64,000 nucleotides of DNA, taken from positions 1 to 64,000 of IMG/VR virus record IMGVR_UViG_3300037524_002067; one strand, given 5' to 3'. Below are positions 1,352-55,060 of the stretch, one piece after another. The notes beneath the pieces are model-generated. The model was not told the origin of the DNA and did no database searches. It worked only from the letters and a program-made list of their open reading frames with translations. The DNA comes from a virus. Position numbers and translations under genes: made by a program. The first letter of the stretch is position 1; the number at the start of each line of letters is the position of its first letter.

Positions 1352-1381
1352 AAAAAAACCCCGACTTTTTTGGTCGGGGTT
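1352..1381 (-). terminator. Attenuator terminator of tRNA array 1
   Basis: AACCCCGAC-CAAAAAA-GTCGGGGTT followed by a U tract. Confidence 0.85.
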
Positions 1382-1407
1382 CAAGTTTAAATTTCCTTAC
1401 AACGAAA

Positions 1408-1515
1408 TTAATTCATGACATACCCGACCTGGCTACTAAATAGCACAAACAACACTTGCACCAAAAAGAGTGCACGTAAGCTGCGAAGGTTAGATATGTT
1501 AGAATAATTTTTCAT
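1408..1515 (-). CDS. Attenuator leader peptide 1 (MKNYSNISNLRSLRALFLVQVLFVLFSSQVGYVMN)
   Basis: 35-aa ORF between promoter and terminator; GGTCGGGT in the ORF is complementary to the terminator 5' arm. Confidence 0.75.
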   Translation of the reverse strand: MKNYSNISNLRSLRALFLVQVLFVLFSSQVGYVMN

Positions 1516-1553
1516 TTGTTATAAATATACGTAAAAATTTGTTTTTCGATATT

Positions 1554-1582
1554 TTATACGTACAAAGGTAATATAAGTTTCA
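1554..1582 (-). promoter_or_regulatory. Composite promoter: TGAAAC-N16-CGTA with nested Bacteroidota -7 element TACCTTTG
   Basis: Same arrangement at 28950-28978 and 55032-55060. Confidence 0.7.
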
Positions 1583-2374
1583 GGTATTTGCAAGTTTATT
1601 TTTGAAATTTGACTTAAAGTGCTGAAAATCAATTTAAAAAATTTATTTAGTTTCCCAAAAATGATAGCATTTTAAGCAAGTGTACAAGGTGTAATATTCA
1701 CCATAGCTCATCAATTTACCTGGAACATGAGGTCCATTCACTCTTCTCATACGCTTTTCTATTCTCACATCCGATGATCCACATTTATGACAAGTTTTTT
1801 TATCTAACTCTTTTTCTTCTTGTTCAATCTTTCTAACTGCTTCACCCCAAGTGCAACGTTCCTTGAACATTACAAGCAATACCAATAATGTGTTCATATT
1901 TTACCCTCCTGTATTTCTTTTACAAAGTTTTCAAAATGCAAAATCAATGCTGGGTGATATCCATTTACAAGAAAAGGTGTTTGATTCACCTGATTCATTA
2001 TAACTGTTTTTGGATCAATATTCCAGATCTCATCCAATTTATGCACATTGTCTTTAAATTTCCCCTCAAGGTATATTTTAAAATCCTCACCTGCTTCAAT
2101 GAGTGTTTCATTAGATTCAGATCCTAAACTTGGATAATTAGCTCTGATAAAGTGTGGAAAATATTCTGTATTCATGTATTTTATTTTTTAAACTCTATTG
2201 TATCAACTTTCCACTCGACACATTCTTGTACAAAAAGTGGACCATAAAATTTATGAACCAATTCTTCTTTTACACAAACTTTTTTTGTCGTATAAAGTTT
2301 ATCATTAATTAAAAAAGTGTCTGGCTCAGACTTACAAGAACAAACAAATAGGACGATTATAAACAAAAACCTAT

Positions 2375-2674
2375 TCACTTTTTTCTATTATGTGTTTCGT
2401 TTCGATCATAAAAATCGCAAGGTTTTTTCTTAACCCACTCAATAAATTTTTGTATTTCTGGATGGACTTTTATTTTTTCTGGATCATTAAAATCTTTTTC
2501 AAGCTCTTTATTTGTCCAGATTGAATGCACTTTACGGTGGCAAATTTTGTGTAAAAACTCTGTTTCTTTTCCGCCACGAGATTTTGGAACCATATGATGC
2601 CTATCAATTGATGGGCCCTTCCACATATCTCTTTCACAAATTGGGCATTTATCTATAACAACTGGTTCACTCAT
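2375..2674 (-). CDS. Small HNH endonuclease
   Basis: CPIC, HHMVPKSRGG and HKICHRKVH motifs. Confidence 0.8.
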   Translation of the reverse strand: MSEPVVIDKCPICERDMWKGPSIDRHHMVPKSRGGKETEFLHKICHRKVHSIWTNKELEKDFNDPEKIKVHPEIQKFIEWVKKKPCDFYDRNETHNRKK

Positions 2675-3409
2675 AAGACTAAATTATTTATCAAACTTAA
2701 TTTTTAAGCCATGTGTTTCTTTAACCCTATCCAGTGGTGCCAATTTAAAAAACTTTGCAACATCAGCAGGATCTTCAAAAATCTCTGAAGTCCACCAAGT
2801 GTTTTTACCAAAAGAAATTTCATACACAGGTTCATTCTCTGTGTATCTCTTACCAGTCACAAGTCCAGCAACAATTCTGGCACCCCACATACCATTGTCG
2901 ATTATACCATATCGTGGTTGACCAATATGCTTATCTTCATTCATTTCTTTTTTAGTTTTTTACGCAATGAATCAATAGCTGGCTTCATATCTTTTATAAG
3001 CCAACGTTCAATATCTTTTGGGGAATAATTTTTATTACCCTCAAGCGATTCCCATGCCTCAATTAATTTTTTAACCTCTTTTCTCAATCGTAAATCTCTT
3101 TTGTCATTATGATTATAATATCTCCACGAACACTTAAACTTCGTCCGAATTGTTTTCCATCAAGCGCAACAGATACAGATTGACTCATTAAGTGTTGAAC
3201 CTGGAAGCCCTCTTTGATTTTTGCATCCATCCAGGTTTTTGCATAACTGGCTGTGTTGCATACAAAAGTTATTGTTTCAATCTTTTTGGTTTTTTGCTTT
3301 GCTGGAGTGCCAGACATAATGAGAACAACCAACAATACACTACCTATAAAAGCTACGGAATAAATAATTGCCTTTTTCATGATTCTATATGGATTATACG
3401 CAAAAAAAA

Positions 3410-4231
3410 TTAAATAGTTTCATATGGAACTGGTTCAATTCTTTTAATTGGTGCGTCATTTTGAAAATCGGTCTCAGCCAAAGCTTTTGTATCAATATAA
3501 GTGTCGTTGTTCAATTCATGACCTTTCATTTCTACATATCTGTATTTTCTTTTTTGGAGAAATTCTGGTACATTTTCGCCAAGCTCTATGTGTTCCAAAT
3601 AATACTTTCTGGTCATTGGCCCAGTGTGTTCATAAATGAAAGTGTGATCTACAGGGACCATACCGCCAACTTTTGGGGCTTTTCCATCATGAGCATCCAT
3701 TGTTGGAAAATAAATGAATCTACCACCACCAAATGGCTTGTATTCAAAAGCAATTGGTTGAGAAGATGAGGTTTCGTTTGTATCAAAAAAACAAACCGCA
3801 AAAGACCAACCAGCATATTTTTCTTGAAAAAAACTTTGTAATTCTTCTGAAATTTCAGGTCGTTTTTCCTCTGGAAATTCTGCTATGGCTTTTTTTACAT
3901 CATCAAAGTTTTTAGTTAAAACAATATCGTAAATTCCAAGTTTAAATCTTTCAACACTTAAACCTTTTGACAAAAACCCTCTTGATCTCATTCCGCACCA
4001 TTCATCCCACTCAGCTTTCTTGATAATGTCGTCAAGAAAATTTTTATAGTTTTCTGTGTTATGAAATAACGATTGTGTTGTTTCACCTGGAATCGGTAAA
4101 ATCATTGCATTTGGCTTTCCAGATTCATTTTTTACACTGTTGCTATAAGCAATAAAATGGTTTCCGTTCTCTAAAGGAAGAGATAGAATTTTTGTCTTTG
4201 ACAATGCGGCGGTGTTAACTGTGATGCACAT
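3410..4231 (-). CDS. Hypothetical protein
   Basis: 273-aa ORF in the co-oriented gene string; no function recognised. Confidence 0.6.
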   Translation of the reverse strand: MCITVNTAALSKTKILSLPLENGNHFIAYSNSVKNESGKPNAMILPIPGETTQSLFHNTENYKNFLDDIIKKAEWDEWCGMRSRGFLSKGLSVERFKLGIYDIVLTKNFDDVKKAIAEFPEEKRPEISEELQSFFQEKYAGWSFAVCFFDTNETSSSQPIAFEYKPFGGGRFIYFPTMDAHDGKAPKVGGMVPVDHTFIYEHTGPMTRKYYLEHIELGENVPEFLQKRKYRYVEMKGHELNNDTYIDTKALAETDFQNDAPIKRIEPVPYETI

Positions 4232-4718
4232 ATTTTTTTACTTTTTTTTACATATCAAAATCATCTATACAAGGACCCCCAGGCCACATCTGAGTGTGAA
4301 AAGGATCCACTTTACCACCTGGGTGGTTCCATTCGTCATACTTACACTTGCACATGCCATTGTGATAATTTTTACCATCACACATAGGGTTGTGCCCTGG
4401 TAAATATGGATAGCCATCATTTTCACTTCGCATATATGGCAATTCTTCTAATGATGGTCGTCCATATTCCTTTGCGTAATCACTAGGAAGTGGTCTACCA
4501 GTTAATTCCTCATACTGATCTAGTAATTTGTTTTCAATTAGAGCGGTAATAAATATTTTTTCATTTTCAGGTAATTGACATATCCAATTACGCACTTGGT
4601 TCGGATCATAATCCAATAAATCTTTACCATTTAATTTAATACCACATTTTAGTGGTGGTCCTTTATAAAGCATGACTTATTTTTTTTGATTAATATATTT
4701 TGGTAATTATATACTTAT

Positions 4719-12416: not shown

Positions 12417-12839
12417 TTAATCTATTTTCATTCGTTTAAAACCCAGAGACTCTTTTTCTTTTCTTGCAATAACAAAAGCGAAGATACTTAAAAACAAACA
12501 AATTGCAAAATAAATGTTGGCCATAATTATCAACCATGGTCTTTCATAAAAATCTCCCAAAACCCAGCAAAAGCTCATCATAACCCAGAAAAATGCAGCT
12601 ACCAAAATAATGTGAACACTTTTCCGACCATCTTCATATGTTATTATAGAAAACAAAGACATCCACACCGCAAGAGCTCCACACAAAGTAGATGCATAAT
12701 TATAATTATTCATCCAAAAAAAATCCATCAAAAACCACATTAACGTAGCGCCAGTTTCAAACCTTTCATATGTTTTAAGCTTATGCATTTTCAATTGTTT
12801 CTTTGTGTGTAATTTTAGGGAATAAAACAACCTTCTCAA
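12417..12839 (-). CDS. Membrane protein
   Basis: About four hydrophobic segments; true start probably the Met at about 12788. Confidence 0.6.
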   Translation of the reverse strand: MRRLFYSLKLHTKKQLKMHKLKTYERFETGATLMWFLMDFFWMNNYNYASTLCGALAVWMSLFSIITYEDGRKSVHIILVAAFFWVMMSFCWVLGDFYERPWLIIMANIYFAICLFLSIFAFVIARKEKESLGFKRMKID

Positions 12840-14259
12840 GACTTCTTAAACTATTTAAAGCCTCATTTGCTTTGTTTGGTATCACTGGAAGATAATAAAA
12901 AGTAATCTCCAACAGAGCCTTGTAAAGCGTTCTAAGCACTAAAGCTCTCCTAAGAGGATCAACAGTTTTAACCCAGGGTTCGTTGGTTACAATGTACTGG
13001 TTAGCCTTTGTGCAAACATCATTTAAAGCACTCATTGCTGTTGTAAGGTCATAAACATCATAAAGAAAGCCCACCGATGTTAATTCACCAGCAAACACCT
13101 TTTCATATTCACTTGGAAGATGTTCATCAACACTAATCTCATACAAGTTTATAAGATGAATAACCCTGGCAATCAAATTTCCATAATTGTCGGCCAGATG
13201 TGAATTGTAAAGATTAACCAAGTGTTTCTCATCCCAAGAAGAATTTCCATAAAGTTGAATACCCGCTATGGTATAATACCTCACTGCATCAACACCAAAT
13301 TTATTAAGTTGATCAATTGGATCTGTTACATTGCCAACGCTCTTTGACTCTTTTTGCCCACTTTTATCTGTTATGGTTCCATGACACAATAAAACTTTGG
13401 TATGTGGCACTCCAGCAGCCAACAATAAACCTTGGAAAATTACAGCTTGAAACCTTAAATTGTCTGGGCCAAAAATCTGAACTGAGTTCTCCCAATACTC
13501 ATCAAAATTTTCTTTATCCAGATAATACCCAGCGATAAAAATGTAGTTACAAAGGGCCTCAAACCAGACGTAAATATTTTGAGAATCATCATTAGGTACT
13601 GGGATACCCCAAGGAACAACATTCTTATCTCTTGAGATTGATATATCCGCACATGACTCGATTAAGTTTTTCAATTCATTATGTTTGCTTAATGGACGAA
13701 GACCAGATCCAGAATCAAACCACTCAAGCAGTTGTGGCTTAAATTTGCTGAGAGCAAAAAAATAATTTTCCTCGTTTACATTTTGCAACTCTCTGTTTGG
13801 GTGATCCTGGCATTTGCCACCAACTAAATCTTTGTCAAATTTAAAAGCTTCACATCCTACACAATATTTTCCCTCATAACTTTTTTTGTAAATCAAACCA
13901 TTTTCTTTGCAATGATTCCAAAACTGCTTAACCTGCTTATGGTGTTTTGGGTGTGATGTTCTATAAAAAGAATTGTATTGAATATTGAACTTTAAACAAA
14001 ATTCTTTCCATTTAACTGCTAGACCATCCAAATACTCCTGTGTTGATATCCCAGCTGCAACAGAAGCATCATGTATTTTTTTACCATGCTCATCAAGACC
14101 AACATTAAAATGAACCTTGTTATCGCCAAGTTTTTCTTTAAAATACCTAGCCAATGTATCACCGACAACAAATTCAAACAGATGCCCTGCGTGAGGACTA
14201 CTGTTGGCGTAAGGCAAAGTACAAGTTATAATTTTTTTTCCTGTCTTACTTAATACCAT
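12781..14259 (-). CDS. metG: Methionyl-tRNA synthetase
   Basis: LPYANSSPHAGH (HIGH), GLDEHG, YCVGCE, ISISR, YVWFEAL and KESKS (KMSKS). Confidence 0.95.
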   Translation of the reverse strand: MVLSKTGKKIITCTLPYANSSPHAGHLFEFVVGDTLARYFKEKLGDNKVHFNVGLDEHGKKIHDASVAAGISTQEYLDGLAVKWKEFCLKFNIQYNSFYRTSHPKHHKQVKQFWNHCKENGLIYKKSYEGKYCVGCEAFKFDKDLVGGKCQDHPNRELQNVNEENYFFALSKFKPQLLEWFDSGSGLRPLSKHNELKNLIESCADISISRDKNVVPWGIPVPNDDSQNIYVWFEALCNYIFIAGYYLDKENFDEYWENSVQIFGPDNLRFQAVIFQGLLLAAGVPHTKVLLCHGTITDKSGQKESKSVGNVTDPIDQLNKFGVDAVRYYTIAGIQLYGNSSWDEKHLVNLYNSHLADNYGNLIARVIHLINLYEISVDEHLPSEYEKVFAGELTSVGFLYDVYDLTTAMSALNDVCTKANQYIVTNEPWVKTVDPLRRALVLRTLYKALLEITFYYLPVIPNKANEALNSLRSLEKVVLFPKITHKETIENA

Positions 14260-19501: not shown

Positions 19502-20110
19502 AACAGTCTTAATCTCAATTTTACTTTCTCGTATTTTTCCTGAGTTTTTTTATATTCAGCTGCAAATACTGCAGCTTTAAAGTTTTTTGAATCTAAGCGC
19601 TTTTTTAAAAACGCCATATATTCTTCCTCCTGTTTCCTGGTTGGTTTTTTATTTGCCATTAGTATTCTTTTTGAATAATTCCTGTATTCTTTCGATATAC
19701 ACACTAACATCTTCTTGGTTTAAATACTCAATATCTATTGTAAGATCTATTGCAAGCGCTCTCCTTCTTCTTTTAATGTAAGTTTTATCTACTTCTTGTT
19801 TTTTAAGCCACTCTTTTATAAATAAAACTTCTGTCATTGCTTACTTTTTATGAATTCTTTATATTTATTTTCGGCTTCTACAACACTTTGAGTATTGTCA
19901 AATTCTTTCATTAGAACAACCTTCTCTTCTTTTGTTAAATCAAACCCAGAAAGTATTTTGGTAACACATATAAGCTTTGAATTAAACAACTTAATTTGTT
20001 CCAATTCAACAATAAGTTCTTGATATTTCTGATCGCACCTATCATGTCGAGTTGTTTTTTGTAAATATAATAAAAAAAGAGCAATAATCAAATTGCTCTT
20101 TCTTAATTGG

Positions 20111-20181
20111 AGGCCCCGATTCGAATTTAACGAATCTAACAAGTTTTGCAGACCTGTGGTTAGTCTCTCACCCACGGGGCC
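20111..20181 (-). tRNA. Divergent tRNA-Cys(GCA) overlapping ORF ends
   Basis: Acceptor GGCCCCG/CGGGGCC-T, loop CTGCAAA, aberrant T loop. Confidence 0.6.
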
Positions 20182-20391
20182 ATATTATGTTTTTTTGCAA
20201 CGCGCTGATAAAACCGTGAAATTCTTGAAAAACCTTATTGATATTTTCTAAACCTGAACCTGAAACTGAAACCGATAATTCACCAAGAGCCTTTTGAGCT
20301 TCTATACACCCTTGTTTACTCAAATCTTTCAATTTTTTTAAGGACACTTTTCCATTTTTTATATCCAACCATTCTTTAACGTATAATACTA

Positions 20392-21147: not shown

Positions 21148-21209
21148 AACTATAAATAGTATGAAAAAAAGACGATAATAACAAACGAGCTAATTGTGTG
21201 TTAGTTTTG

Positions 21210-21296
21210 AGAACATAGTCAGATTCGAACTGACGAACAAATTACTTTGTATAACGGTTTTGCAGACCGCTGACTTAACCACTCATCCATATGTTC
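21210..21296 (-). tRNA. tRNA-Cys(GCA) with long variable arm
   Basis: GCGGT-CTGCAAA-ACCGT; variable stem ACAAA-GTAA-TTTGT. Confidence 0.85.
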
Positions 21297-21300
21297 GTTG

Positions 21301-21373: not shown

Positions 21374-21405
21374 ATATTCAGGTGCCACTTCTGACACCTG
21401 AGATT

Positions 21406-22314: not shown

Positions 22315-22323
22315 AAATATATC

Positions 22324-23315: not shown

Positions 23316-23340
23316 ATAATTCAAAGAACATTTTATTTCA

Positions 23341-34926: not shown

Positions 34927-35346
34927 ACCAATAAATAGTTTTTAAAAGCAAAAAGCCGACCATCACAGATCGGCTTTAAGCTTCTTTTTTAGGACTTTTC
35001 TCTGTTCTTAACCCAGATGCCATCCTTAAGTTTGTAAACCCCTTGTTTAACCCATTTTCCATTTACCTGGAACATGTTTTCAAGGTGTATTACTGTAATT
35101 TTCCAAACTTTTGGAAAACGGCTCAATGCCGTATATTCCTTAGCCAGTTGGATGGCTTCTTGTTCTGCGATCTCTCTGTCTTTGTTACCAGGAGTACTGG
35201 TTTCAACCCAGAAAGAGGGGGCGTTAGCGCCAGTAACACTGGTTAGCTGTACCCTCCATAGGCGTGTTTTGTTGTTCATAAGAACATTGTTGACAATTAA
35301 TCAACAACGACCTAAGAACTATTAATATGTGTATTTCTTTTCATTA

Positions 35347-36030
35347 TTATTTCTTCAGCAATTCTAATTTACCTTTCATGAATTGTTTAAGACTTGTTTC
35401 TTTTCCAGTTTCATGATCAATAACTCTATCGTCTTTTTCACGATACGTTCTTTTTTTGTCTGACCTTTCACCACTTCCTATTTGAGAATTACGTAAATAG
35501 TTCTGATTCTTAACTCGATTATCTTCAAAAATTTTTTTCAGTTTTTCAGTTAATCTTTCCCAAGCGATTACTTCATTTTTTTCACGATCTCTAGAACCTT
35601 CAGATCTTATTACAATTCCAGAAGGGTGATGTATTAGTTGAACACATGATTCGACTTTGTTCACATTTTGTCCTCCTTTACCTCTACTTCTTACATAATT
35701 TACTGTAACTTGATTTTTATCTAAGAAAAATTTTTCTTTCTCGTCAGTTGATAAAATTGCTACACTTAAAGTAGAAGTATGAATTCTACCACCTCTTTCA
35801 TTTGGCGGAATTCTGCACCAAGAATGAACCCCGATTTCATTTTTAAAGAACTCTTTTACACCATTTCCAGTCAGTCAAATTGATACTAAACCAGGAGTTC
35901 AGTGCTCACTGCTAACAACAAAATTATTGTTTTTGGCTGCTTTAATATACATAGCCGCCATATCCTTAACTAACATTTTCGAATCGTCACCTCCCGTGCC
36001 AATGCGAATTTCAAAAACAATGGTTTCCAT
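35347..36030 (-). CDS. prfA: RF1-like class I release factor (no N-terminal domain) with two in-frame UGA codons
   Basis: One frame: EIRIGTGGDDS ... TGA (35899-35901) ... TGA (35875-35877) ... NEIGVH..RIPPNERGGRIHTS ... GKGGQNVNKVES ... GSGERSDKKRTY. Confidence 0.85.
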
Positions 36031-36137: not shown

Positions 36138-36884
36138 ATGAAAAAAGAACTAACCGAAGAACAAAAAGAGTTACGCAGAGCATATAAAAGAAAGTGGGAA
36201 AAAGAAAAAAAAGAAAAAATGAGTCCAGAAGAAAGGGAAGTCAGAAGAATTTATATAAACAATTGGAAAAAAGAAAAAAATAAAAAATTAACTCCAGAAG
36301 AGAAAACTAATCGTAAAGAATATCAAGAAAAATGGCGCAAAGAAAACAGGGAACATCTCGCTCAATGGCATCGTGATTATAGAAAGAAAAATCCAGAATC
36401 CAATAAGATAAACACTAAAAACTATCGAAAAAATAACCCAGAAAAATCCAAACAGAGCACTAAGAAATACAAAGATCGCAACAAAGATAAAGTAGAAGCC
36501 TATAGAAAAAAATACAAAACCAGAAAAAATGAATTGCAGAAAATAAAAAAAACAACCGATCCGCTATTCGCTCTTTCAACTAAAATTAGACAAACTATTC
36601 TAAAGTCTTTGGGGAGAAAAACAAAAGGTAGTTCCAGAACAGAAGAAATTTTAGGTTGTTCGTTCTCTGAATTTAAAAAATACATTGAGTCAAAATTTCA
36701 ACCCTGGATGTCATGGGATAATCGTGGCAAATATAATGGAGAATTAAATTACGGATGGGATCTTGATCATATTATGCCTTTAGCCTCTGCAAAAACAGAA
36801 AAAGAAATTATTGCCCTAAATCACCATACAAATTTTCAGCCACTTTGCAGCAAAATAAACCGAGATATAAAACGAAACAATTAA
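36138..36884 (+). CDS. HNH-like endonuclease with a charged N-terminal helix
   Basis: LGCS..F..YIE, MSWDN, WDLDHIMPL, NFQPL; it reads on the + strand (ATG AAA AAA GAA at 36138) although the track labels it -. Confidence 0.8.
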   Translation: MKKELTEEQKELRRAYKRKWEKEKKEKMSPEEREVRRIYINNWKKEKNKKLTPEEKTNRKEYQEKWRKENREHLAQWHRDYRKKNPESNKINTKNYRKNNPEKSKQSTKKYKDRNKDKVEAYRKKYKTRKNELQKIKKTTDPLFALSTKIRQTILKSLGRKTKGSSRTEEILGCSFSEFKKYIESKFQPWMSWDNRGKYNGELNYGWDLDHIMPLASAKTEKEIIALNHHTNFQPLCSKINRDIKRNN

Positions 36885-37330: not shown

Positions 37331-38069
37331 GTCATTTATACGTATTAAATTAAAAAAGATTGCATCAAAGCTGCCTTTTTGGGTGGACTGTTGGTAAATC
37401 TTGGGCTATAGTCTTGGCAGAAATATTTTTTATAACTGGAAATTGGATATCCTCAAATTTTATTTTTGTTGGCTCATAGACAATAACTGGTCTTTTTATA
37501 AAGACATCATTTTTATAATCGTAATCTTCCCCATTTATAACCCAATATCTAGAATATTGAGTTGCTGTAACTCCTTTTTTGGTTACATATTTATTAAAAA
37601 ATCCATGCACAAAATCATGCCCACCTCCAACGTGATAAAAATATTCATTTCCAAATTTAAAATCAGTTTTTTGCTTTTCCTTTAAATTTGCAATCGCTTC
37701 TCTTAATTCTCTTTCAGTGTCTTCTTGATATTTATAATCAAGATGAAAAGTTGGTTTATCATTTTTATTATCTTCCATTATACAAAATTTGCTTTGTTCT
37801 TAGTTATAATATAATGACTTTGACATCCATGTCTATGCGCTAAAGAAGGTGCCACTGTAACCCTTCCGCTATTGTCTGTTTCAATAGTCCAACCATCATT
37901 TTTTCCATCACCCACTCCATTAATAGAATTAAGATTAATATAGGTATCCATGCCGCACCCGCAAAAACACTTGTGTTTAGCCCCCATAAATTCTTTGCTA
38001 ATATAAAGTTTCCCTTCTTCGCACAAATCATTTGCTGGAAGATATTCTTCACACCACACTGGCTCTATT

Positions 38070-38765
38070 TCAACTTGTTTTATTGTTTTCATTCATTATT
38101 TTTTCTAAAATATCCGTTTCTTTCAGAATCTGATCCCATTTTTCTTTTTTCATTTTCTTTCCATAATCAGATGTAAATTCTGCAGCTGCAAGAAACTTTT
38201 TTTGACCTTGTATAAAATCTTGGACGCTAATATTGAGTTCGCTTGATAACCCCATAATAGCTTGTTGGAACCAATTGTATTCTAACACTTGCATTATATC
38301 TGCGTCACGAATAATTCTTTGATATTTGTCTAAATCTTTCGATTCAATGATATAAGGATACTGAGTTGCATCAAGAAGATTGTCCACAAATTCAATGTTT
38401 TCATCTGTAACATCAATATTTTCATCTTTTATAAATTTTTTGATACCAGTTTTTGCGTCGGCCACATTTTTATCATCTTTGTGTTTACCAGCAGAATGGT
38501 TATAATCATGCATGATCGCGGCAATCATTGTCCACTTTGCATTTCTACCATCTAACAACCCTTCTGTTTTTAAGCCATAATAAACATGCCTCAATACAGT
38601 TAATAAGTGGTTTAAGTTGTGATAAGGAGCATAATTAGAGGTGTTGTTCTTCACAATATATTTTAAGGCTTTTTTTAGAAAGTCATATTTATCTATAATT
38701 TCCAAAACAGATAATTCTTGTTCTTCCAAACCAGCAAGATTTTGCATTTTATTTTTTTCGTTCAT
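38070..38765 (-). CDS. HD-domain phosphohydrolase
   Basis: YHNLNH, MHDYNH and RDAD motifs. Confidence 0.8.
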   Translation of the reverse strand: MNEKNKMQNLAGLEEQELSVLEIIDKYDFLKKALKYIVKNNTSNYAPYHNLNHLLTVLRHVYYGLKTEGLLDGRNAKWTMIAAIMHDYNHSAGKHKDDKNVADAKTGIKKFIKDENIDVTDENIEFVDNLLDATQYPYIIESKDLDKYQRIIRDADIMQVLEYNWFQQAIMGLSSELNISVQDFIQGQKKFLAAAEFTSDYGKKMKKEKWDQILKETDILEKIMNENNKTS

Positions 38766-39623: not shown

Positions 39624-39653
39624 AGAAAAGCCCCCAGAATTTCTTCCAGAGGC
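39624..39653 (-). terminator. Terminator after the large ncRNA
   Basis: GCCTCTGGAA-GAAA-TTCTGGGGGC followed by TTTT. Confidence 0.75.
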
Positions 39654-39662
39654 ATCTAATAC

Positions 39663-40488
39663 CAGCCTGAGATTACAGCTAAGTGTCCCGATCTTTGTGT
39701 TGCAGATTACTGTCTCCTGCAGTTGTCCAGCCACCTTTCGATGCGCTATTCGGTAATTCCGATTGCTTACGGCAATCAATCTTTTCGACTCATCAACTCT
39801 GCAGCTACTCATCCTACACCTGTATGCCTACCGATATAAAACTTTGTTCTACAATACAACATTCCTTGTGGGTTTGTTGCTCCTGGTTCATCTCGCGATG
39901 CCAGGACATGAGGAACCTTTTGACTCTATCGTCCACAAGTCTTTTACTTTTTGTCTTTTTCAAAATAAAAGTGTCGGGCTATGAACCCAACCATCATTGG
40001 TTGCGCTGGAAGACGGGCTCATGGATGACAATTCCGATTTTTGCAAATCAGTATATTGTTCCGCCTCCCTGGAGGTTTTGGCAAACCTCACTATTAATCT
40101 CGACAACTCTTTCACTTGTGCGTTTCTCAACACACAGAGGTTTTTAATTACCTAAATTAATTGACTTATCGCATTTGCCTTGCCTGGCTCACACTAATTA
40201 AGTCTCGACTTTTCCTTACAGCTTTACGCTTTCAGCTACCCAAATTTTTAAGTTGGATAGCAGGCCCTGAGATATTAATCCATTGGTACCTGTACTAGTC
40301 TCGTGCCTGGGTATTCTATTTAGAGCAAGCTCTAACAAGACGGAAGTTTAGCAATCTCCCTTTATTCACCATTACTGGGTTTATTTTTTCCCAAAAACCA
40401 GGTTCCAAACCTGACTTTTGTTTAGATCATCCGCAAATGATCCAGAACTTCACCAACCTTATGGTTGGGAGCGACTCCATGCAGCCGC
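39663..40488 (-). ncRNA. Large structured ncRNA, GOLLD-like
   Basis: ~830 nt, GC-enriched, no credible ORF, many hairpins; 3' GAGTAG...GTAATCTCAG; promoter TATATTTG and boxA-like motif upstream, terminator downstream. Confidence 0.6.
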
Positions 40489-40785
40489 AAAATTTTTCAA
40501 TAAGTTTAAAGAACGTTTTCTTTTGTGTTGCAAATATATAAACTCTTTGCGCAATTTCAAAACGTTTTTTTCAAAAAACTTAAATTTTTTTATAAGCATT
40601 TGATTATCAACCTTTGTTTTTTATCTAGACAAAATCTAGACGTTATAAATAACATGAAATGGGAAGCCAGTCTTCCTACACGGCTGGGTAAAGCAAGTAC
40701 ATTTAGACATTACTGTCGCCTTGGATTTGCCCCGCCCTGGGTTCGAACCAGAATTTAACAAACACACTTCAATATTTTATAAAAT

Positions 40786-47736: not shown

Positions 47737-48233
47737 AATTAAAAATGAAATTCTTTGTTTATATACTACTTTTTTTCAACCTCAACCTGATTGCGGCGCA
47801 AGAGTTTTGCGACTATTACGAAGACACAACAAAAATGCAATTGGTAAGAGTGGACATGAAAGAACAAATGAGAAACACTCTATTTGAGTGTTTAAAAAAT
47901 GGTGACATAAAAGATATCATGATATTTTTAGATCCTAGTCTAAACTTCATTTATGTAAAAGACACTTCAGTTATAAAAAATCAAATTGTCACCGAATATG
48001 AAGCTATAGAAATATTAAAAAATGTTGAAAAGGTTGATTACAATTTTTTTAAAATACAATATGATCTATATCATGATGGAAATTATATGATCATAGCTAG
48101 ATTATATAAATCAGATATGGAAATTATTCCACTAATGAACATTTACTTCATTTTCTCAAAATATAGCTTCGTTAAAGCCATTGCAGTGCAGTGGGGAATT
48201 ACAAAATAAACATACTGGGAAATTAAAAACTAG

Positions 48234-48318
48234 AAGCGGGGGTCAGATTCGAACTGACGTTCTCTTTCGAGTTAAAGGTTATGAGCCTTCGCTGGATCCA
48301 ACTCCAGTCGACCCCGCA
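48234..48318 (-). tRNA. tRNA-Met(CAT), initiator-like, with long variable arm
   Basis: 1:72 mismatch; loop CTCATAA. Confidence 0.75.
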
Positions 48319-48323
48319 ATTTG

Positions 48324-48468
48324 TTGCAATGGTTGGAATTGCACCAACTTTCTCTGACTTAGCGCCAGCGAGTTTTAGGTAGATAAATCCACAAACTACA
48401 AACACATATTACGTAATTCTATGTTTGCTAAAAGGATTCCATATAACCTTCTGTCTCTCTCCATTGCG
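48324..48468 (-). ncRNA. tRNA-shell RNA (acceptor and T arm with a large insert)
   Basis: CGCAATG/CATTGCA-A; T arm GTTGG-TGCAATT-CCAAC. Confidence 0.45.
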
Positions 48469-48481
48469 AGAGTTTGTTCTG

Positions 48482-48565
48482 TACCAGCGGTGGGACTCAA
48501 ACCCACAATACCACAGGGTATCCGCTTATGAGGCGGACGCAATTATCACATCTGCTCACACTGGC
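48482..48565 (-). tRNA. tRNA-Met(CAT) with long variable arm
   Basis: TCCGC-CTCATAA-GCGGA. Confidence 0.8.
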
Positions 48566-48606
48566 ATATTTATAGACACCATTATAATGTCTATAAATTT
48601 TTCTTG

Positions 48607-48877
48607 TTGAATAGACAGGATTTTAACCTGTGAACACGTTATGTGATCTGTGTTACACACAGACGGTTTTAACACTTACCTACTATCCATGACATGATTT
48701 CTCATTTACTAATACTGTTTCAATTAGATCGAGCGTTGCATGCCACGCCGAGAGAGTTCGTGTTTGGCGGATGTTATCTCACTCACAACTATCAACACTA
48801 TGTTTAGATGCTGGGATGTTTTGCATCCATCTTATCAATTACACTGAATGGTGAAGCACCAATTCCAGCATACTCAA
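48607..48877 (-). ncRNA. tRNA-shell RNA with a ~200 nt insert
   Basis: TTGAGTA/TATTCAA stem, D-like GCTGGAATTGGT, T arm ACAGG-TTAAAAT-CCTGT. Confidence 0.45.
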
Positions 48878-49025
48878 TATTTTCAAAACCATTTTCTTTG
48901 GTTATCAAAGACTCACTCTCGCTAATAGCTCCAGTAAATTTATCAAACCCTTTTTTGTTTTCAATCTTGCCAGTTGAAGGATTGTAATAAAATTAATTTT
49001 TACCTATTTATAATAAAACAATTTT

Positions 49026-49709
49026 ATGAAACCACTTTACACTACTAAAGAATTTAATTTAGCTAAATCTTTTGATAAATTACCTTGTGAATGCTATCAT
49101 TGTAAACAGCCATTTTTAATTTATAAAACTCGAATTGTTGATGTTTTAAGACCAAATAATAAAGTTAAAACAAAAGCAAAATATTGCTCAAAAGAATGCT
49201 CTTCAAAAGCTAGGAGTTTAAAAATAACCTATCAATGCCATCATTGCGGAAAGGAATGTGTTAAAAAAGCATCTCAAATCAAACTATCAAAATCAGGGTT
49301 TAATTTTTGTTCAAAACATTGCACATCTTCTTATCATATTAAACATAAAAACTACGGAACTAATCGTTCAAAACTAGAACAATGGATTGCTGAACAATTA
49401 ATTATAAAATATCCAGATCTTAATATTAAATACAACGATACTGAAACACTTAACGGATTAGAATTAGATATTTATATCCCATCCTTACAGATTGCTTTCG
49501 AATTAAATGGCGTTTTTCATTATGAGCCAATTTTTGGACAAGACAAACTTGACAAAACAATAAAAAAAGATAAGAACAAAATGAGCCTTTGTTTAGAAAA
49601 CAAAATTGATTTATGCATAATTGATACTACGTCACAAAAATATTTTAAAGAACATACTTCACATAAGTTTTTAGACATTATATTAAACATAATCCAACAG
49701 CGTTTATAA
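49026..49709 (+). CDS. Zn-finger + PD-(D/E)xK-type endonuclease
   Basis: Repeated CxxC and YCS..C; ELDIYIPSLQIAFELNGVFHY. Confidence 0.75.
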   Translation: MKPLYTTKEFNLAKSFDKLPCECYHCKQPFLIYKTRIVDVLRPNNKVKTKAKYCSKECSSKARSLKITYQCHHCGKECVKKASQIKLSKSGFNFCSKHCTSSYHIKHKNYGTNRSKLEQWIAEQLIIKYPDLNIKYNDTETLNGLELDIYIPSLQIAFELNGVFHYEPIFGQDKLDKTIKKDKNKMSLCLENKIDLCIIDTTSQKYFKEHTSHKFLDIILNIIQQRL

Positions 49710-50228
49710 TTTATTGAATTGAATTCTTAAATCATGGATCTTTCTTTGATAATCTGAAACACTGATTTCTTTGGTGTTTGACGTTTTCTTCGTCAACTCA
49801 CTACGCATTTCATCTTCCAAAAATTTAATCCTCTCCTGAAGTTTTAACTTCTTCTTTTCTTGATTTACCATCACGTTCTTTTTTTAGCTCATTAATTATT
49901 TCTTGTAACACAATTGCATGTCGAGCATACACAGTCATTTGTGCTTTTATTTTTTCTATATGATCTATGGTTGTTAATTTTGATTTTAATCTATAACCGT
50001 CTCCATCATCATTGTTTTGATTTTGCATTTGTTTCTCTTTCTTCTTTCTACCGCATTGTTATAATCTACAACACACGTATCAATGTCATCTTCATATATA
50101 CGACATTTAATTTTTAAATTGCTTATTACATAAAACATTGACATAAACATCAAAGCTACAATAAGCGTTTTTTCCTTTTTTCAATTTCAATTTTTCATTT
50201 TTTTGTTTTTTTTTATTTGTTTTTCTTG

Positions 50229-50301
50229 AGCAGAAGAGGAGAATCGAACTCCCGTCCACGACTTGGCAAGCCATTGTAATAAGCCACTATACGACTTCTG
50301 C
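50229..50301 (-). tRNA. tRNA-Gly(GCC)
   Basis: Loop TTGCCAA; U73. Confidence 0.85.
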
Positions 50302-50375
50302 AGGAACAACCTCAGTCAACATTTTGCTACGAGTTACTGACGTAGTTTGGAGTTAACCTCTGGTTGCATTTTTTG

Positions 50376-50446
50376 AGCAAAGTATCGGATTCGAACCGCA
50401 CCCCGACATTGGAAGTGTCGTGCTCACCCTTCGAGCTCTACCTTGC
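50376..50446 (-). tRNA. tRNA-Gly(TCC) overlapping the HNH 3' end
   Basis: CGACA-CTTCCAA-TGTCG. Confidence 0.8.
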
Positions 50447-51059
50447 ATTTATTTATGTTTCTATTTCTTCCTCCGTGTGTATCTAAAGTCGCATTACAAT
50501 TTGGACATAATATTCTTAAATTTTCTAATCTATTATCGTTGTGAACGCCGTTTTCATGATCCAAAATTAAACTCATATGTGCACCATTCCATTCCTCCCC
50601 TTGCCCACACATTTCACATTTATTTTGTTTCAACCCCTCCCTATATAATCTATTTTTTAAAGATACAGTGTTGTTATAGGTTGAATTTTTAATTAATACA
50701 TTTTTTAAATCTATTTTTTTACTAAAAATAACTTGTTCTCCTTTATAATCAAAATGAGAAATATCAACCTCATATAAATTTATGTATTTTATAACTGTTT
50801 TACGATTCCCGTGCCCATCATTTAATTGTAATTTTCTAACAGCATCAGAATAACTTCTTGAATTTTTTATTATTTCAATAAATTCTTCTTTTACATATCT
50901 TTTGCTCCTCAAGTTTAATTTTAACTCTTTTGCTTTGTGTTTTACTGAATCTTTACTTCTATTAAGATTAACCATACAATAATTGACCCCGTATTCAACA
51001 TAATTAGAAATAACAAACTCAATTTCTTTTTCACTCCATTTTTTTGGTATTTTTTTCAT
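50424..51059 (-). CDS. HNH homing endonuclease
   Basis: LDHENGVHNDNRLENLRILCPNC. Confidence 0.9.
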   Translation of the reverse strand: MKKIPKKWSEKEIEFVISNYVEYGVNYCMVNLNRSKDSVKHKAKELKLNLRSKRYVKEEFIEIIKNSRSYSDAVRKLQLNDGHGNRKTVIKYINLYEVDISHFDYKGEQVIFSKKIDLKNVLIKNSTYNNTVSLKNRLYREGLKQNKCEMCGQGEEWNGAHMSLILDHENGVHNDNRLENLRILCPNCNATLDTHGGRNRNINKCKVELEG

Positions 51060-51120
51060 TGCTCTTTACTTTTATTATAAATATTGCCAAAAAAAGCAAA
51101 GTGCAATAAAAATGTTTTTG

Positions 51121-51203
51121 AGCGAGTTGGGGTAGTCGAAACCCCATATATGCATTGGAAGTGCATCATAATACGCCTTTAAGCTCCGTTATACTAAACT
51201 CGC
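51121..51203 (-). tRNA. tRNA-Gly(TCC) with expanded D loop
   Basis: ATGCA-CTTCCAA-TGCAT. Confidence 0.75.
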
Positions 51204-51456
51204 AGTTTACACATTTTCCTTTAATTTTCAGAGGGCGGCAATGTGTTAGCCTTTCTGCTACTCTTTATAAAACACATCCTGCATATTCGTCCCTAAGGAT
51301 AATGTTATTTTGCAGTGCATCCCCTTAAAGGAATGACGGAGGATATCCGTTTCTTGTGCTTCAATTGGTATGGGCATTGTAAAAAACAAGACTACAAACC
51401 CATCTTTACAGCGTTACACATCTACCCGTAGCTAGGTCACAGACATGGCGCAGTCG

Positions 51457-51575
51457 TGGGGAGAGCTAGACTCGAACTAGCATAGCCATTTAAGGCAGCG
51501 TGGTTACGACCACACAATGCTTACCGTACCGAGCTTCGATGATCAGTCGAAAAGCGTGTACATTGCCACCTCCCC
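51457..51575 (-). tRNA. Atypical Tyr-like tRNA with a ~40 nt D-loop insert
   Basis: Acceptor GGGGAG/CTCCCC, loop TCGTAA, Tyr-type variable arm, normal T arm. Confidence 0.45.
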
Positions 51576-51601
51576 AAATAATTTTTTTGATTTAAATACG
51601 A

Positions 51602-52063
51602 TTAATCGTCTTTTTTGCTGTTAGCGTATTTAACGCCCATTATCGTTCCAATAATACTGAAACTGTTTGTAAGCAAGATGCTAAACATATTGCTCCATGT
51701 TGATTCTATGATTTTTACCTCATAACCTTTTACAAGAGCTAGAACATATAACCCTGTTGTAATTAATCCAACTCCAAGTATAATCCCAAGAGCAACTTTT
51801 ACAATTTGACCAACCAATTGATTTTGAGTTTTCTTTTGTAAAACTTCAAGTTCATGAAGCGCATCTTCTTTTTCTTGAGCGTTTTTTTGGCTTTGCTCCA
51901 AATGCCACTTGTTTATTCTTCCAACACTTGTGCCAAGTTCACGAGCAACAGCAAATTGATTTTCAACATCTTTACCATTAAGTTTCCCTGTTCTTAAATA
52001 CTCTTCATAAAGCTTTATTTTGTCAGGTGTAAATTCATTGCCAGATGTTTCTTCTTTTGCCAT
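51602..52063 (-). CDS. Two-TM membrane protein
   Basis: Two hydrophobic helices; likely start MAKEE. Confidence 0.6.
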   Translation of the reverse strand: MAKEETSGNEFTPDKIKLYEEYLRTGKLNGKDVENQFAVARELGTSVGRINKWHLEQSQKNAQEKEDALHELEVLQKKTQNQLVGQIVKVALGIILGVGLITTGLYVLALVKGYEVKIIESTWSNMFSILLTNSFSIIGTIMGVKYANSKKDD

Positions 52064-52135
52064 TGTTCGTTGTTTTTTTACTATTATAAATAATAACAAA
52101 AAAACTTCGGGCACAGGTTTTTAAAAAATAATTTG

Positions 52136-52221
52136 TGGAAATGACGGGACTCGAACCCGCATTAGAACTTTCGTCCGTCCTGATTGCAAATCAGGTGCCT
52201 AACCAATTAGACTACATCCCC
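52136..52221 (-). tRNA. tRNA-Ala(TGC) with long variable arm
   Basis: G3:U70; loop TTTGCAA. Confidence 0.85.
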
Positions 52222-52226
52222 ATTTG

Positions 52227-52300
52227 TGGAGGTAAACGGATTCGAACCGATGACCCCCTGCGTGCAAGGCAGGTGCTCTAGCCAGCTGAGCTATACCCCC
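52227..52300 (-). tRNA. tRNA-Ala(TGC)
   Basis: Canonical cloverleaf; G3:U70. Confidence 0.95.
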
Positions 52301-52421
52301 AATTTAAAAAAATATGGCCTGGCATTGTGTTGATCAACCATGTATATCTCTTGTATACACAGCCAAGTTCGCCAATTTGTGTTACCGTAAAGAGAATGAA
52401 TAGGTAACCACCATATTTTTT

Positions 52422-52946
52422 TTATTTCCACATTCCACCTGAATTCAATCTTTCGATTTCTTTTTCAAGTTTCTTTTGTTTTTTCTTTTCAATGAAATCA
52501 TCAAATTCTTTTAAAAGAGATTCTGGAATCTCAATTCCTTTATCTGAAAATTCTTTCAAAATCTCTTCTCTTGTAAAAGTGTGCTCAACAATTCCATCTG
52601 TCCACTGATCACGCCATAAACCCCAACCTCTTTTTCCAACCAACAAAGATTTCATGATGTTTGGATGTCTTGTAATGATTGGTTTTCCACCACCATACTG
52701 ACCATTTTCAAATTTTCTGAAACAGTTTTTTACTTCTGGACCATTCACATCAAACTCTATTTCTTTATCCACTTGTGAACCACAAAACGTTATCAATCCT
52801 TTTCGATTGATATCTAAGAAAAATTTAAACATCTTGTTGAAATTATCGGAATACTTCTGAAGTTTTCTGTCTAATTGTGTTCCAATTTCTTTTTTTCTTT
52901 GCTCAATTCTTTTGAGTCTTTCATTGGTTAGCTTCTCGCTCCCCAT
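52422..52946 (-). CDS. Hypothetical protein
   Basis: Start trimmed to MGSEK to avoid overlap with tRNA-Tyr. Confidence 0.55.
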   Translation of the reverse strand: MGSEKLTNERLKRIEQRKKEIGTQLDRKLQKYSDNFNKMFKFFLDINRKGLITFCGSQVDKEIEFDVNGPEVKNCFRKFENGQYGGGKPIITRHPNIMKSLLVGKRGWGLWRDQWTDGIVEHTFTREEILKEFSDKGIEIPESLLKEFDDFIEKKKQKKLEKEIERLNSGGMWK

Positions 52947-52988
52947 CGCTCTTTCTCGCCTTTCATAGATTTTGTTTTTAATTGTTTG

Positions 52989-53070
52989 TTGGGGTGATCG
53001 GATTCGAACCGACTCAGCCAAGGCAACAGTTTTACAGACTGTCCTAACTCTCCAGCGTTAGCGCACCCCA
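52989..53070 (-). tRNA. tRNA-Tyr(GTA)
   Basis: ACAGT-CTGTAAA-ACTGT. Confidence 0.85.
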
Positions 53071-53078
53071 ATTTATTC

Positions 53079-53156
53079 TGGTGGGATAGAAGGGACTTGA
53101 ACCCTATGCGGTTGAGTTTTACAGACCCTCCGACTCTATTGCCTTGGCATTATCCC
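53079..53156 (-). tRNA. Divergent tRNA-Tyr(GTA)
   Basis: Loop CTGTAAA; encoded CCA; weak D stem. Confidence 0.65.
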
Positions 53157-53275
53157 AGTTGTAATTTTTGTCTAGGTTTTCTTCCTAACAATTGCTTTTA
53201 GAAGCTGACACATCCTCTGACGTGCCATCCCATGTACTTAGGGTAGCCTTTCAGCAACTTCTAAACTTTTTAATG

Positions 53276-53362
53276 CGGGACTGAAGGGAGTCGAACCCTC
53301 TACGAGATTTTCATCTGCACCACATAGACAGTGTGGCATACCAGCCGTTATACGCCAGCCCC
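53276..53362 (-). tRNA. tRNA-Asp(GTC) with long variable arm
   Basis: CCACA-CTGTCTA-TGTGG; G73. Confidence 0.85.
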
Positions 53363-53393
53363 AATTTGATTTTTATCTAGGTTTTCTCCTAGT

Positions 53394-53469
53394 TGGCAGT
53401 GCATACGGGGGTCGAACCCGCTCCTCAACCGCAGACAACGGCGCATCTTAACCATTTGACCTATGCACT
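53394..53469 (-). tRNA. tRNA-Asp(GTC)
   Basis: GCCG-TTGTCTG-CGGT; GCCA end. Confidence 0.85.
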
Positions 53470-53482
53470 ATTTTTATTCTTG

Positions 53483-53551
53483 TCATCAAGGCTGGATTTC
53501 CACCAACAACCTCCCTGTGCACGGGACTCTTAGATGTTGAGCTACTTGATG
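53483..53551 (-). ncRNA. Degenerate tRNA-like RNA
   Basis: Acceptor CATCAAG/CTTGATG, D and T arms, shortened anticodon arm. Confidence 0.45.
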
Positions 53552-53556
53552 AAGTA

Positions 53557-53638
53557 TGATGGTAATTGTGAAGCTATGTTTTTCGATTGGAAGTCAAATG
53601 CCCTAACGGGCTAGAAGTAAGCAAACACATGGCCATCA
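53557..53638 (-). ncRNA. Minimal Y-RNA-like RNA
   Basis: Terminal stem TGATGG/CCATCA with GGCCATGTG...TTACTTCT motif. Confidence 0.5.
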
Positions 53639-53643
53639 ATAAG

Positions 53644-53723
53644 TACGCTGCAGTGGGATTTTCACCCTCGGTTACATCTCATTCCTCACGTGGAATGTAT
53701 CTTAAAAGTTAGACGACACAGCG
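53644..53723 (-). ncRNA. Degenerate tRNA-like RNA
   Basis: Acceptor CGCTG/CAGCG; CATTCC-ACGTGA-GGAATG arm. Confidence 0.4.
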
Positions 53724-53802
53724 ATTTAATTTCCTACGGGGTTGAAACTTGCGTATGAAGAGCGACTTCACAGAGACAAATAACAACTCACCCGTTTATG
53801 TG

Positions 53803-53876
53803 TCGAGTAGACTGGAATCGAACCAGCTAACTGATGCTTCCAGGGCACCCGTGCTTATAACCTTAGTCACTACTCG
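53803..53876 (-). tRNA. Divergent tRNA-Pro(TGG) overlapping the HNH stop codon
   Basis: GGTGC-CCTGGAA-GCATC; C1:G72, A73. Confidence 0.7.
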
Positions 53877-54508
53877 TTTTTTTTATTATTTTTACCAGCA
53901 TAAGTTTTTGTTTGACTGTGACAATTAGGACAAAGAAATCTTAAATTTTCTATTCTATTATCGTTATTCACCCCATTCTTATGATCAAGTTGTAATACTA
54001 TTTTTTCATTCATCCACTCTCCTCTATTTTTGCATTTTTCACATGCATATTCTAATAATTCTTCTTTTAACAATCTTCTTTTTAAAGCGTGTTGACTGTA
54101 ACTTGAATTTATGATTAATATCTCATTTATATCTTTTCCTTTTTGTCCAGTTCTTTCTCTTCTAATGCCTTTAAATTTTTGACCTTCAAAATGAGAATTA
54201 TCTAAGTTGTTTTCAACAATTCTTTTTTTTATAGTTCTTATATTAGAACCTGTTGTTTTAATTTTAAATCCTCTACATATTTCAGAATATGTTGTTGATG
54301 TTTTTACCAATTCTTTTAATTTAGTTACATCATATTCTCTTCCAAGTCTTATTTTAAAATGTTTTAAATTTAAATTTAATTCTAATGCTATTTCTTTTAT
54401 TTTATTAAAAGTATAACCATTGTTTTTTAAACTCATTTTAGAACATACCTCACTCAAAGAAGTACTATTTTTTATTGCACGTTTTAATTTATCTTTATCT
54501 ATTTTCAT
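53870..54508 (-). CDS. HNH homing endonuclease
   Basis: LQLDHKNGVNNDNRIENLRFLCPNCHSQT. Confidence 0.9.
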   Translation of the reverse strand: MKIDKDKLKRAIKNSTSLSEVCSKMSLKNNGYTFNKIKEIALELNLNLKHFKIRLGREYDVTKLKELVKTSTTYSEICRGFKIKTTGSNIRTIKKRIVENNLDNSHFEGQKFKGIRRERTGQKGKDINEILIINSSYSQHALKRRLLKEELLEYACEKCKNRGEWMNEKIVLQLDHKNGVNNDNRIENLRFLCPNCHSQTKTYAGKNNKKNE

Positions 54509-54634
54509 ATATTTTATTTATAAAAAAATACGAAAAATAAAAGTATTAAACAAATTATTTCAATCAATTAGACCAACTCACGCAACTCCTGATATGAAGT
54601 TTTTGATTTAAAACAAAAGCAACAAAACAAATCG

Positions 54635-54707
54635 TCAGGGTGACAGGGGTTGAACCTGCGACCTCCTGGTCCCAAACCAGGCGCTCTCCCAACTGAGCTA
54701 CACCCTG
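54635..54707 (-). tRNA. tRNA-Pro(TGG)
   Basis: CCTGG-TTTGGGA-CCAGG. Confidence 0.95.
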
Positions 54708-54789
54708 AAGTGCTGTGGGTTTTGGAGTACCCACAGCTAAATTTCCCAATATGTCAAAGATCTCATGTTATTTTTTAACTGAAATAACC

Positions 54790-54825
54790 AAAACAAAAAA
54801 CCCGCTCTTTTTAGGGAGCGGGTTT
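54790..54825 (-). terminator. Attenuator terminator of the Pro/Asp/Tyr/Ala/Gly/Met array
   Basis: AAACCCGCTC-CCTAAAAA-GAGCGGGTTT followed by a U tract. Confidence 0.85.
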
Positions 54826-54855
54826 GTTAATTCCTTTTGTTTGTATCACTTGTTT

Positions 54856-54984
54856 TTATCCAAGCTTTCTAAAAGTCAAAACATATCCGCTCCCATAGCT
54901 ATAATCATAAGCTGGGGCATACCCTGCACCGCCCATCATCGGGGCTGCTGGAGTAGTTGCTGAATATGTAGTTACTGTTTTCAC
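54856..54984 (-). CDS. Attenuator leader peptide 4 (MKTVTTYSATTPAAPMMGGAGYAPAYDYSYGSGYVLTFRKLG)
   Basis: 17 consecutive P/A/M/G/Y/D codons; GGGAGCGG is complementary to terminator CCGCTCCC. Confidence 0.85.
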   Translation of the reverse strand: MKTVTTYSATTPAAPMMGGAGYAPAYDYSYGSGYVLTFRKLG

Positions 54985-55031
54985 CTGTATTGTTTCTTTT
55001 AAATAGTTAGAAAAAATGTTTTTCTGAAAAT

Positions 55032-55060
55032 TTATACGTACAAAGATATGTTAAGTTTCA
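55032..55060 (-). promoter_or_regulatory. Composite promoter: TGAAAC-N16-CGTA with nested TATCTTTG
   Basis: Recurrent motif. Confidence 0.7.

Follow-up and report, generated by a model that had tools for sequence, protein, structure and literature searches.

Leader open reading frames matched in codons to downstream tRNA arrays suggest attenuation of phage tRNA genes

Enterobacteria use leader-peptide attenuators (trpL, hisL, and pheL among them), and some of these are multivalent, with thrL covering Thr and Ile and the ilvGMEDA leader covering Ile, Leu, and Val. Here we describe units of similar design in front of phage tRNA genes. The stretch analysed (the window) covers positions 1–64,000 of a 154-kb linear virus record, IMGVR_UViG_3300037524_002067 (G000), a large-phage fragment with 32% G+C. 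All tRNA genes of the window belong to four minus-strand blocks. Each block is preceded by a Bacteroidota-type promoter, a short open reading frame (ORF), an antiterminator within this ORF, and an intrinsic terminator. A preliminary description of the same DNA had noted this order, including a segment complementary to the terminator arm, and it holds for all four arrays. The arrangement very probably reflects ribosome-mediated transcription attenuation, in which the output is the tRNA set that reads the leader's own control codons and the effect is negative feedback on tRNA supply. Such control would be attenuation of the trp/thr/ilv type with a new output, tRNA genes.

The phage units resemble thrL and ilvGMEDA in their short leaders with control codons, their predicted 1:2, 2:3, and 3:4 pairings, their intrinsic terminator, the readthrough predicted to follow stalling, and the several amino acids served by one leader. 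A major difference is the output, which is biosynthetic enzymes in the enterobacterial systems and tRNA genes here. The phage leaders also cover up to about ten isotypes, with codons chosen by isoacceptor, and a handful of units spans most of the code.

The pheM attenuator of Escherichia coli pheST, like other leaders of aminoacyl-tRNA synthetase genes, controls a charging enzyme. The phage units share with pheST an attenuation that would feed back on charged-tRNA supply, and one of them contains a tryptophanyl-tRNA synthetase gene (trpS), but they act on the tRNA genes themselves. T-box riboswitches also sense tRNA charging and control termination, and a few of them precede tRNA genes in Firmicutes. 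T-boxes are ribosome-independent with a conserved structure that is not present in the phage units; an Rfam search found neither a stem I specifier loop nor an antiterminator bulge there. Bacteroid-trp RNA, a Trp attenuator, is likewise a candidate cis-regulatory leader of the same host phylum. It is cellular and concerns one amino acid and trp genes, unlike the phage units, which matched no Rfam amino-acid operon leader and whose downstream genes are tRNAs, with trpS in one unit only. The motif is Rfam RF01692 (listed in PMC2864571).

Among regulated tRNA arrays in the literature, the closest is the Anabaena trn operon, a silent array under TrcR that is switched on by translational stress. 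Unlike the phage leaders, TrcR is a protein repressor that acts at initiation on one array, with no codon specificity (PMC10272220). Why phages carry tRNA genes has been an open question for more than 50 years (PMC10264068). Three papers present phage tRNAs as a counter-defence against anticodon nucleases (PMC10264068, PMC11464382, PMC11555353). They give a likely selective reason for tRNA replacement and concern tRNA function; PMC10264068 leaves attenuation and promoters unmentioned. The huge-phage paper PMC7162821 nowhere mentions attenuation or leaders. The preliminary description knew of no such control of phage tRNA arrays, and we too found no account of leader-peptide control of tRNA genes in the literature searched, subscription papers being outside its reach.

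Codon matching between leaders and arrays

G000 carries five units, four in the window and one beyond it, with leader ORFs of 29–42 codons. The short ORF always lies between the promoter and the regulated genes, and in the four window units a GC hairpin with a U-tract, the intrinsic terminator (3:4), follows 28–40 nt past the leader stop and leads into the tRNA array.

The preliminary description had proposed to test whether leader codons covary with array content in related phages. We gathered 47 units from twelve segments (G000, G001–G005, G007, G009, G010, L010, L055, and L056) and scored 46 leader–array pairs, drawn from 11 related phage records, by their best 10-codon window against 100,000 shuffles each, global and within-genome. 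Leaders matched their own array at 0.79; global shuffles gave 0.32 and within-genome shuffles 0.40, and no shuffle reached 0.79 (p ≤ 1e-5 in both designs). In none of the 46 cases did another leader of the genome fit the array better than the array's own leader. Read in the +1 or +2 frame, the leader DNA showed no such signal (p 0.25–0.73). The curated pairs were picked after the sequences had been seen, and homologues occur among the leaders, so the weight lies on the within-genome shuffles and on an automatic set. The automatic set (n = 35), chosen blind to composition, includes two false units and lost some true ones; kept as a conservative test, it gave a match of 0.76 against 0.44 shuffled. 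A unit search requiring TATTTATAA missed leaders of other clades.

Array groupings differ among phages, and the leaders follow them. Ser is grouped with Arg, with Arg and Trp, with Leu, or with His/Lys/Phe/Trp. Alternating Leu/Ser codons precede a Leu/Ser array, a Gln run precedes Gln arrays, and a Lys run precedes a Lys array; Asn/Gln/Tyr and Asp/Cys/Glu/Ala leaders match their arrays in the same way.

The match extends to isoacceptors. Leaders of Arg(TCT/CCT) arrays use AGR over CGN codons 10:1, and those of Arg(NCG) arrays 0:14 (Fisher p 3e-6). For Ile(TAT) arrays the ratio of ATA to ATY is 11:2, and for Ile(GAT) arrays 0:22 (Fisher p 2e-7); codons of homologous leaders are not independent in either test. 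Across informative leader codons, 134/192 are readable by the leader's own array, compared with 90.8 expected from genome codon use (z 6.9). By permutation, frame, and isoacceptor tests alike, the control codons are cognate to what the downstream unit supplies. The isoacceptor-level match suggests that the leaders would sense tRNA species and not amino acids.

In the preliminary description, control codons were assigned to the isotypes downstream of each window leader. This stands for the units that we call N, P, and L after their control codons, least clearly for L, the Leu/Cys leader, which has 7/10 matching codons in its best window. The leader at 1408–1515 (unit F) had been labelled Phe alone, and here the assignment changes. 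Its Phe codons are few beside many for Leu, Val, and Arg, the two for Arg being CGC and CGT. In G007 the identical peptide, with two synonymous changes, is followed by Phe, Val(TAC, GAC), Leu(AAG, CAA, TAG, CAG), and Arg(ACG) tRNAs; judged by this complete array, the unit F leader reads as a Phe/Val/Leu/Arg sensor. Leu(TAA) is not in the called part of the G007 array; in the window it has a unit of its own, with TTA/TTG as the control Leu codons.

Similar units occur in a cultured phage, Cellulophaga phage phi38:1 (NC_021796.1), which has three, each with promoter, antiterminator, and terminator. The unit at 35283–35360 precedes a Lys/Ile/Gly/Met/Asp/Thr/Val/Arg array, with an Ala gene read by eye. 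The second (36744–36833) has 16 consecutive matching codons before Tyr/Ser/Asn/Trp/Phe/Cys tRNAs, and the third (37987–38076) has 12 before Pro/Glu/Gln/His/Leu/Arg(ACG). Calle_1 has at least the first two of these in common with phi38:1, LR756504 and LR745206 also carry units, and Lak-B1 has a candidate. The tRNA regions of three non-Bacteroidota phages, a small sample (Vibrio 2.275.O, Bacillus G, and Ochrobactrum OC), held no such unit. The system is bench-testable because phi38:1 is cultured. PMC5335546 reports strand-specific RNA-seq of its infection of Cellulophaga baltica and six phi38:1 non-coding RNAs (Supplementary Table S4 there).

Unit anatomy and the predicted RNA switch

The four window leaders, placed by the preliminary description at 1515–1408, 23516–23403, 28884–28783, and 54984–54856, are open on the minus strand, which also carries the other parts of these units. 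The unit F promoter (1562–1593), like those of the other window units, has the form TTG-N-TAnnTTTG. We take this to be the sigma-A-type promoter consensus of Bacteroidota, and it fits a host in this phylum. A phage-wide motif, TATTTATAA, stands 3 nt upstream of the start codon (1519–1527) and is a possible second promoter. The leader (1408–1515, 35 aa) has Leu/Arg(CGN)/Phe/Val control codons at positions 10–26 (1488–1438), region 1 at 1499–1492, and region 2 at 1418–1429, where the antiterminator (1429–1423) overlaps the 1:2 partner (1425–1418). After the terminator and U-tract (1352–1379), the array (16–1227), truncated at the contig end, holds Phe(GAA) genes together with two insert-bearing tRNA-like genes.

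Unit L has its promoter at 23555–23586 and a 37-aa leader at 23403–23516. Control codons 27–35 (23438–23412) are Leu TTA/TTG and Cys, region 1 is at 23500–23490, and region 2 is at 23422–23405. The terminator and U-tract (23340–23372) precede an array (20108–23315) of Leu(TAA) and three Cys(GCA) genes, with protein genes interspersed. In unit N, the promoter (28958–28989) is followed by a 33-aa leader (28783–28884) with Asn/His/Thr/Lys/Ile control codons 4–23 (28875–28816), region 1 at 28867–28859, and region 2 at 28814–28796. Its terminator with a U-rich tail (28708–28746) leads to Asn, His, Thr, Lys, and Ile(GAT, TAT) genes and a CAT gene, probably Ile2 (24320–28364). Unit P (promoter 55040–55071) has a 42-aa leader with a GTG start (54856–54984). 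Its control codons 12–28 (54951–54901) are Pro/Ala/Met/Gly/Tyr/Asp, with region 1 at 54969–54962 and region 2 at 54894–54881; the terminator and U-tract (54790–54822) precede Pro, Asp, Tyr, Ala, Gly, and Met genes with HNH and other genes between (48233–54707). The fifth leader (G000 77431–77342) has 13 consecutive Arg/Ser/Trp codons, followed by Ser, Arg, and Trp tRNAs and trpS.

The antiterminator is predicted to pair specifically with the 5′ arm of its own terminator. For the five G000 units this pairing has −14 to −19 kcal/mol, and the hairpins at ordinary G000 gene ends mostly have −2 to −9. Over the twelve segments the median is −12.7 in units compared with −6.5 at ordinary terminators (p 6e-13). 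A leader's own antiterminator duplex averages −13.5 kcal/mol against a within-genome null of −10.0 (p ≤ 1e-5). Orthologues retain 2:3 despite altered letters; between G000 and G005, for instance, a G-C pair is replaced by A-U, a compensatory change. When 2:3 partners are swapped between diverged orthologues they mostly pair worse.

Spacing places this pairing under possible ribosome control. Region 2 starts a median of 7 nt past the control block, and 0–14 nt past it in 40/47 leaders (null mean 20.7, max 34). A ribosome covers about 5–6 nt past its A-site codon, so that a ribosome stalled within the block would leave region 2 just free. Since antiterminators fit their own terminator and start at this distance, stalling should give readthrough. 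In ribosome-masked folding of nascent RNA the mean 2:3 probability is 0.86 with the ribosome mid-block and 0.27 with it at the stop; the value of zero with region 2 under the ribosome is imposed by the model itself. The 2:3 antiterminator is computationally mutually exclusive with the terminator and free on a stall at the control codons.

Region 1 had been described as an early ACATA in three leaders, pairing with a Gly-Tyr-Val segment that contains the antiterminator. Both elements are present in F, N, and P, and the antiterminator overlaps the segment rather than lying within it. The 1:2 layout is wider than proposed: it is predicted for each of the five leaders, two of which use different letters. 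A leader's own 1:2 duplex, a candidate protector or pause hairpin that would favour termination when no stall occurs, is better than cross pairs (p 2e-5) and is seen in full-length folds.

Proposed mechanism and alternatives

Host RNA polymerase would initiate at the Bacteroidota-type promoter, and a ribosome, coupled to it, would translate the leader. With cognate charged tRNAs plentiful, the ribosome would pass over region 2 (or 1:2 would refold), the terminator would form, and the array would stay off. Scarcity of any listed tRNA would stall the ribosome in the control block, region 2 would pair with the terminator 5′ arm, and polymerase would enter the array. Fresh tRNA would end the stall and close a negative feedback loop. 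The phage spreads the genetic code over a small number of these units. Covariation, antiterminator specificity, and spacing all fit the stall-dependent readthrough of the preliminary description; leader translation, its coupling to transcription, readthrough in response to tRNA shortage, feedback, and a nuclease trigger are inferred.

Several results weigh against this mechanism. Equilibrium folding of the full transcript lets the terminator win even with a stalled ribosome, and whole leaders do not switch in such folds, so switching must be kinetic. On ribosome-free nascent RNA, 1:2 often loses to 2:3. The stop of unit P is 28 nt beyond region 2, and the static model lets 2:3 re-form with the ribosome there, and in unit N its 2:3 probability at the stop is 0.48. 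Unit L is a weak point, as its control codons overlap region 2. Promoter-like motifs inside the arrays (TATTTATAA at 52092, 51083, 24280, and 23157, and a host-type promoter at 25301) could let distal tRNAs be transcribed without passing the gate. Gating may be partial because HNH and other in-array genes carry their own TATTTATAA motif. This motif lies upstream of many genes and 3 nt before the leader start in 3/5 units, so that a second start, perhaps leaderless, is conceivable.

The same switch could instead be tuned to amino-acid starvation or to a general slowing of translation. A stalled ribosome cannot distinguish an uncharged from a missing tRNA, as trp and his attenuators establish, and trpS lies within the Arg/Ser/Trp unit. 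However, the synonymous codons of leaders follow the downstream isoacceptors, for which an amino-acid sensor has no need, and extra tRNA is no remedy for a missing amino acid. We consider this tuning unlikely. Alternative terminator and antiterminator structures are also common to mechanisms that read the leader RNA without a ribosome, by tRNAs on its codons in a T-box-like way or by a protein antiterminator. Such reading is very improbable here, given that no T-box or other cis-regulatory Rfam family was found at the unit sites, that the codon match is solely in the frame of the start codon, and that spacing fits the leading edge of a ribosome. In one event, a one-codon insertion in the unit P leader of the relative L057, the frame is preserved.

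The terminators might also merely end upstream transcripts or leak, with constitutive tRNAs and a codon match that is a by-product of anticodon-loop copies or base composition. The promoter-like motifs within arrays speak for this, as does AT-richness, which favours Asn, Lys, and Ile codons. Yet every terminator sits between a dedicated promoter and an array, ordinary terminators lack an antiterminator, and shifted frames with the same bases do not match. Copying of control codons from anticodons was rejected, as exact anticodon complements fall below expectation (230 vs 259). This account, too, has very little probability. Least probable of all is an opposite polarity, with stalling turning the array off, or a leader peptide that is itself the effector. 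The last control codons of unit L overlap region 2, where a stall would block the antiterminator, but in 40/47 leaders region 2 is just downstream of the control block and would be left free by a stalled ribosome. Leader peptides are not conserved beyond composition, contrary to an effector role.

If stall-dependent readthrough operates, its trigger could be host anticodon nucleases (of the kind treated in PMC10264068, PMC11464382, and PMC11555353), general tRNA decay, or phage demand; the sequence cannot tell these apart. A sensor wired to its array would imply that tRNAs are made in response to a shortage of those same tRNAs. Attenuation would extend to a phage and to tRNA-gene output, and this would explain why arrays are sorted by amino acid. 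The leaders would be natural in vivo reporters of isoacceptor supply, and terminator readthrough a direct assay of which tRNA species become limiting in infection. Only tentatively do we suggest that in Bacteroidota phages, from the 72-kb phi38:1 to those of 735 kb, isoacceptor-resolved feedback over most of the code detects nuclease-destroyed tRNAs and transcribes replacements on demand. If true, one could read from the leaders which tRNAs the host's anti-phage nucleases attack.

Phage relationships, tRNA genes, and neighbouring elements

G000 encodes methionyl- and tryptophanyl-tRNA synthetases (MetRS, TrpRS), a sigma-70 factor, DNA polymerase III alpha, and Pth2. Its TrpRS is 68–76% identical to those of 480–735 kb phage contigs, including LR756501-3, and no cellular relative of it was found among the genome contigs searched. 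No cultured close relative of the phage was found. In PMC7162821, genomes above 634 kb are placed in the Mahaphage clade, with Bacteroidetes hosts predicted. The Leu/Cys array is followed some 6 kb downstream by the MetRS gene (12781–14259, minus strand), which shows no obvious leader control.

Some tRNA calls were revised by eye. The ARAGORN Tyr at 1143–1227 was rejected and reads as Phe(GAA), and a low-threshold Ile at 51120 was rejected and reads as Gly(TCC). The Met(CAT) call at 24320 is probably Ile2, since it has C4-G69/C5-G68, which we presume to be TilS determinants. The two insert-bearing genes of the unit F array (219–350 and 16–112, minus strand) carry the insert, about 60 nt long, in the anticodon arm and share a GGCCA(C/T)TTGT-TAAG-TACTTCT motif there. 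Both are kept in G007 (about 1870–2000 and 2200–2290). The first gene ends in a Phe-like loop; the insert may be an intron, or the genes may be a new tRNA-like RNA. ARAGORN missed tRNA-Arg-like genes without a normal D-arm at about 76010–75840 of G000 (minus strand; CCT, TCT) and about 3330–3410 of G007 (TCG), which sit in arrays whose leaders hold matching Arg codons. HNH endonuclease genes between tRNA genes (358–858, 50424–51059, and 53870–54508) differ among close relatives.

tRNAs with stop anticodons also occur. A TTA (ochre) anticodon was called at 407620 of G001 (L017), in a His/Lys/Trp/Phe array, and at 11932 of L068 in Bacillus phage G. The Pth2 gene (G000 82391–81480; L001 18391–17480, minus strand) has an in-frame TAG at codon 3 and the same promoter type, and lies upstream of a CUA-anticodon tRNA, an arrangement in which amber-readthrough feedback is possible. 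CUA tRNAs were found in G001 and G002 too. A ten-codon ORF ending in Lys-amber (G000 73928–73860, minus strand) directly follows trpS, ahead of another gene, and sits within a hairpin that resembles the terminator of the Arg/Ser/Trp unit and is related to it.

Two other RNA matches lie on the minus strand of the window. A weak match to YrlA (Y RNA-like) in the Asn/His array (27044–27118) has 27.8 bits, far under the gathering score. A large structured non-coding RNA (39650–40560) has its own promoter and terminator, and its 3′ part (39664–40069) matches Rfam GOLLD with 145 bits (E 3e-40), just missing the gathering score of 150.

A TATTTA(T/A)AA motif occurs genome-wide, 3–17 nt before many start codons (for example at 56907, 52092, 51083, 24280, and 10539 of the window). 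It probably serves as the phage promoter that the encoded sigma factor (G000 100669–101562) uses, and other clades have TAATATATA in its place.

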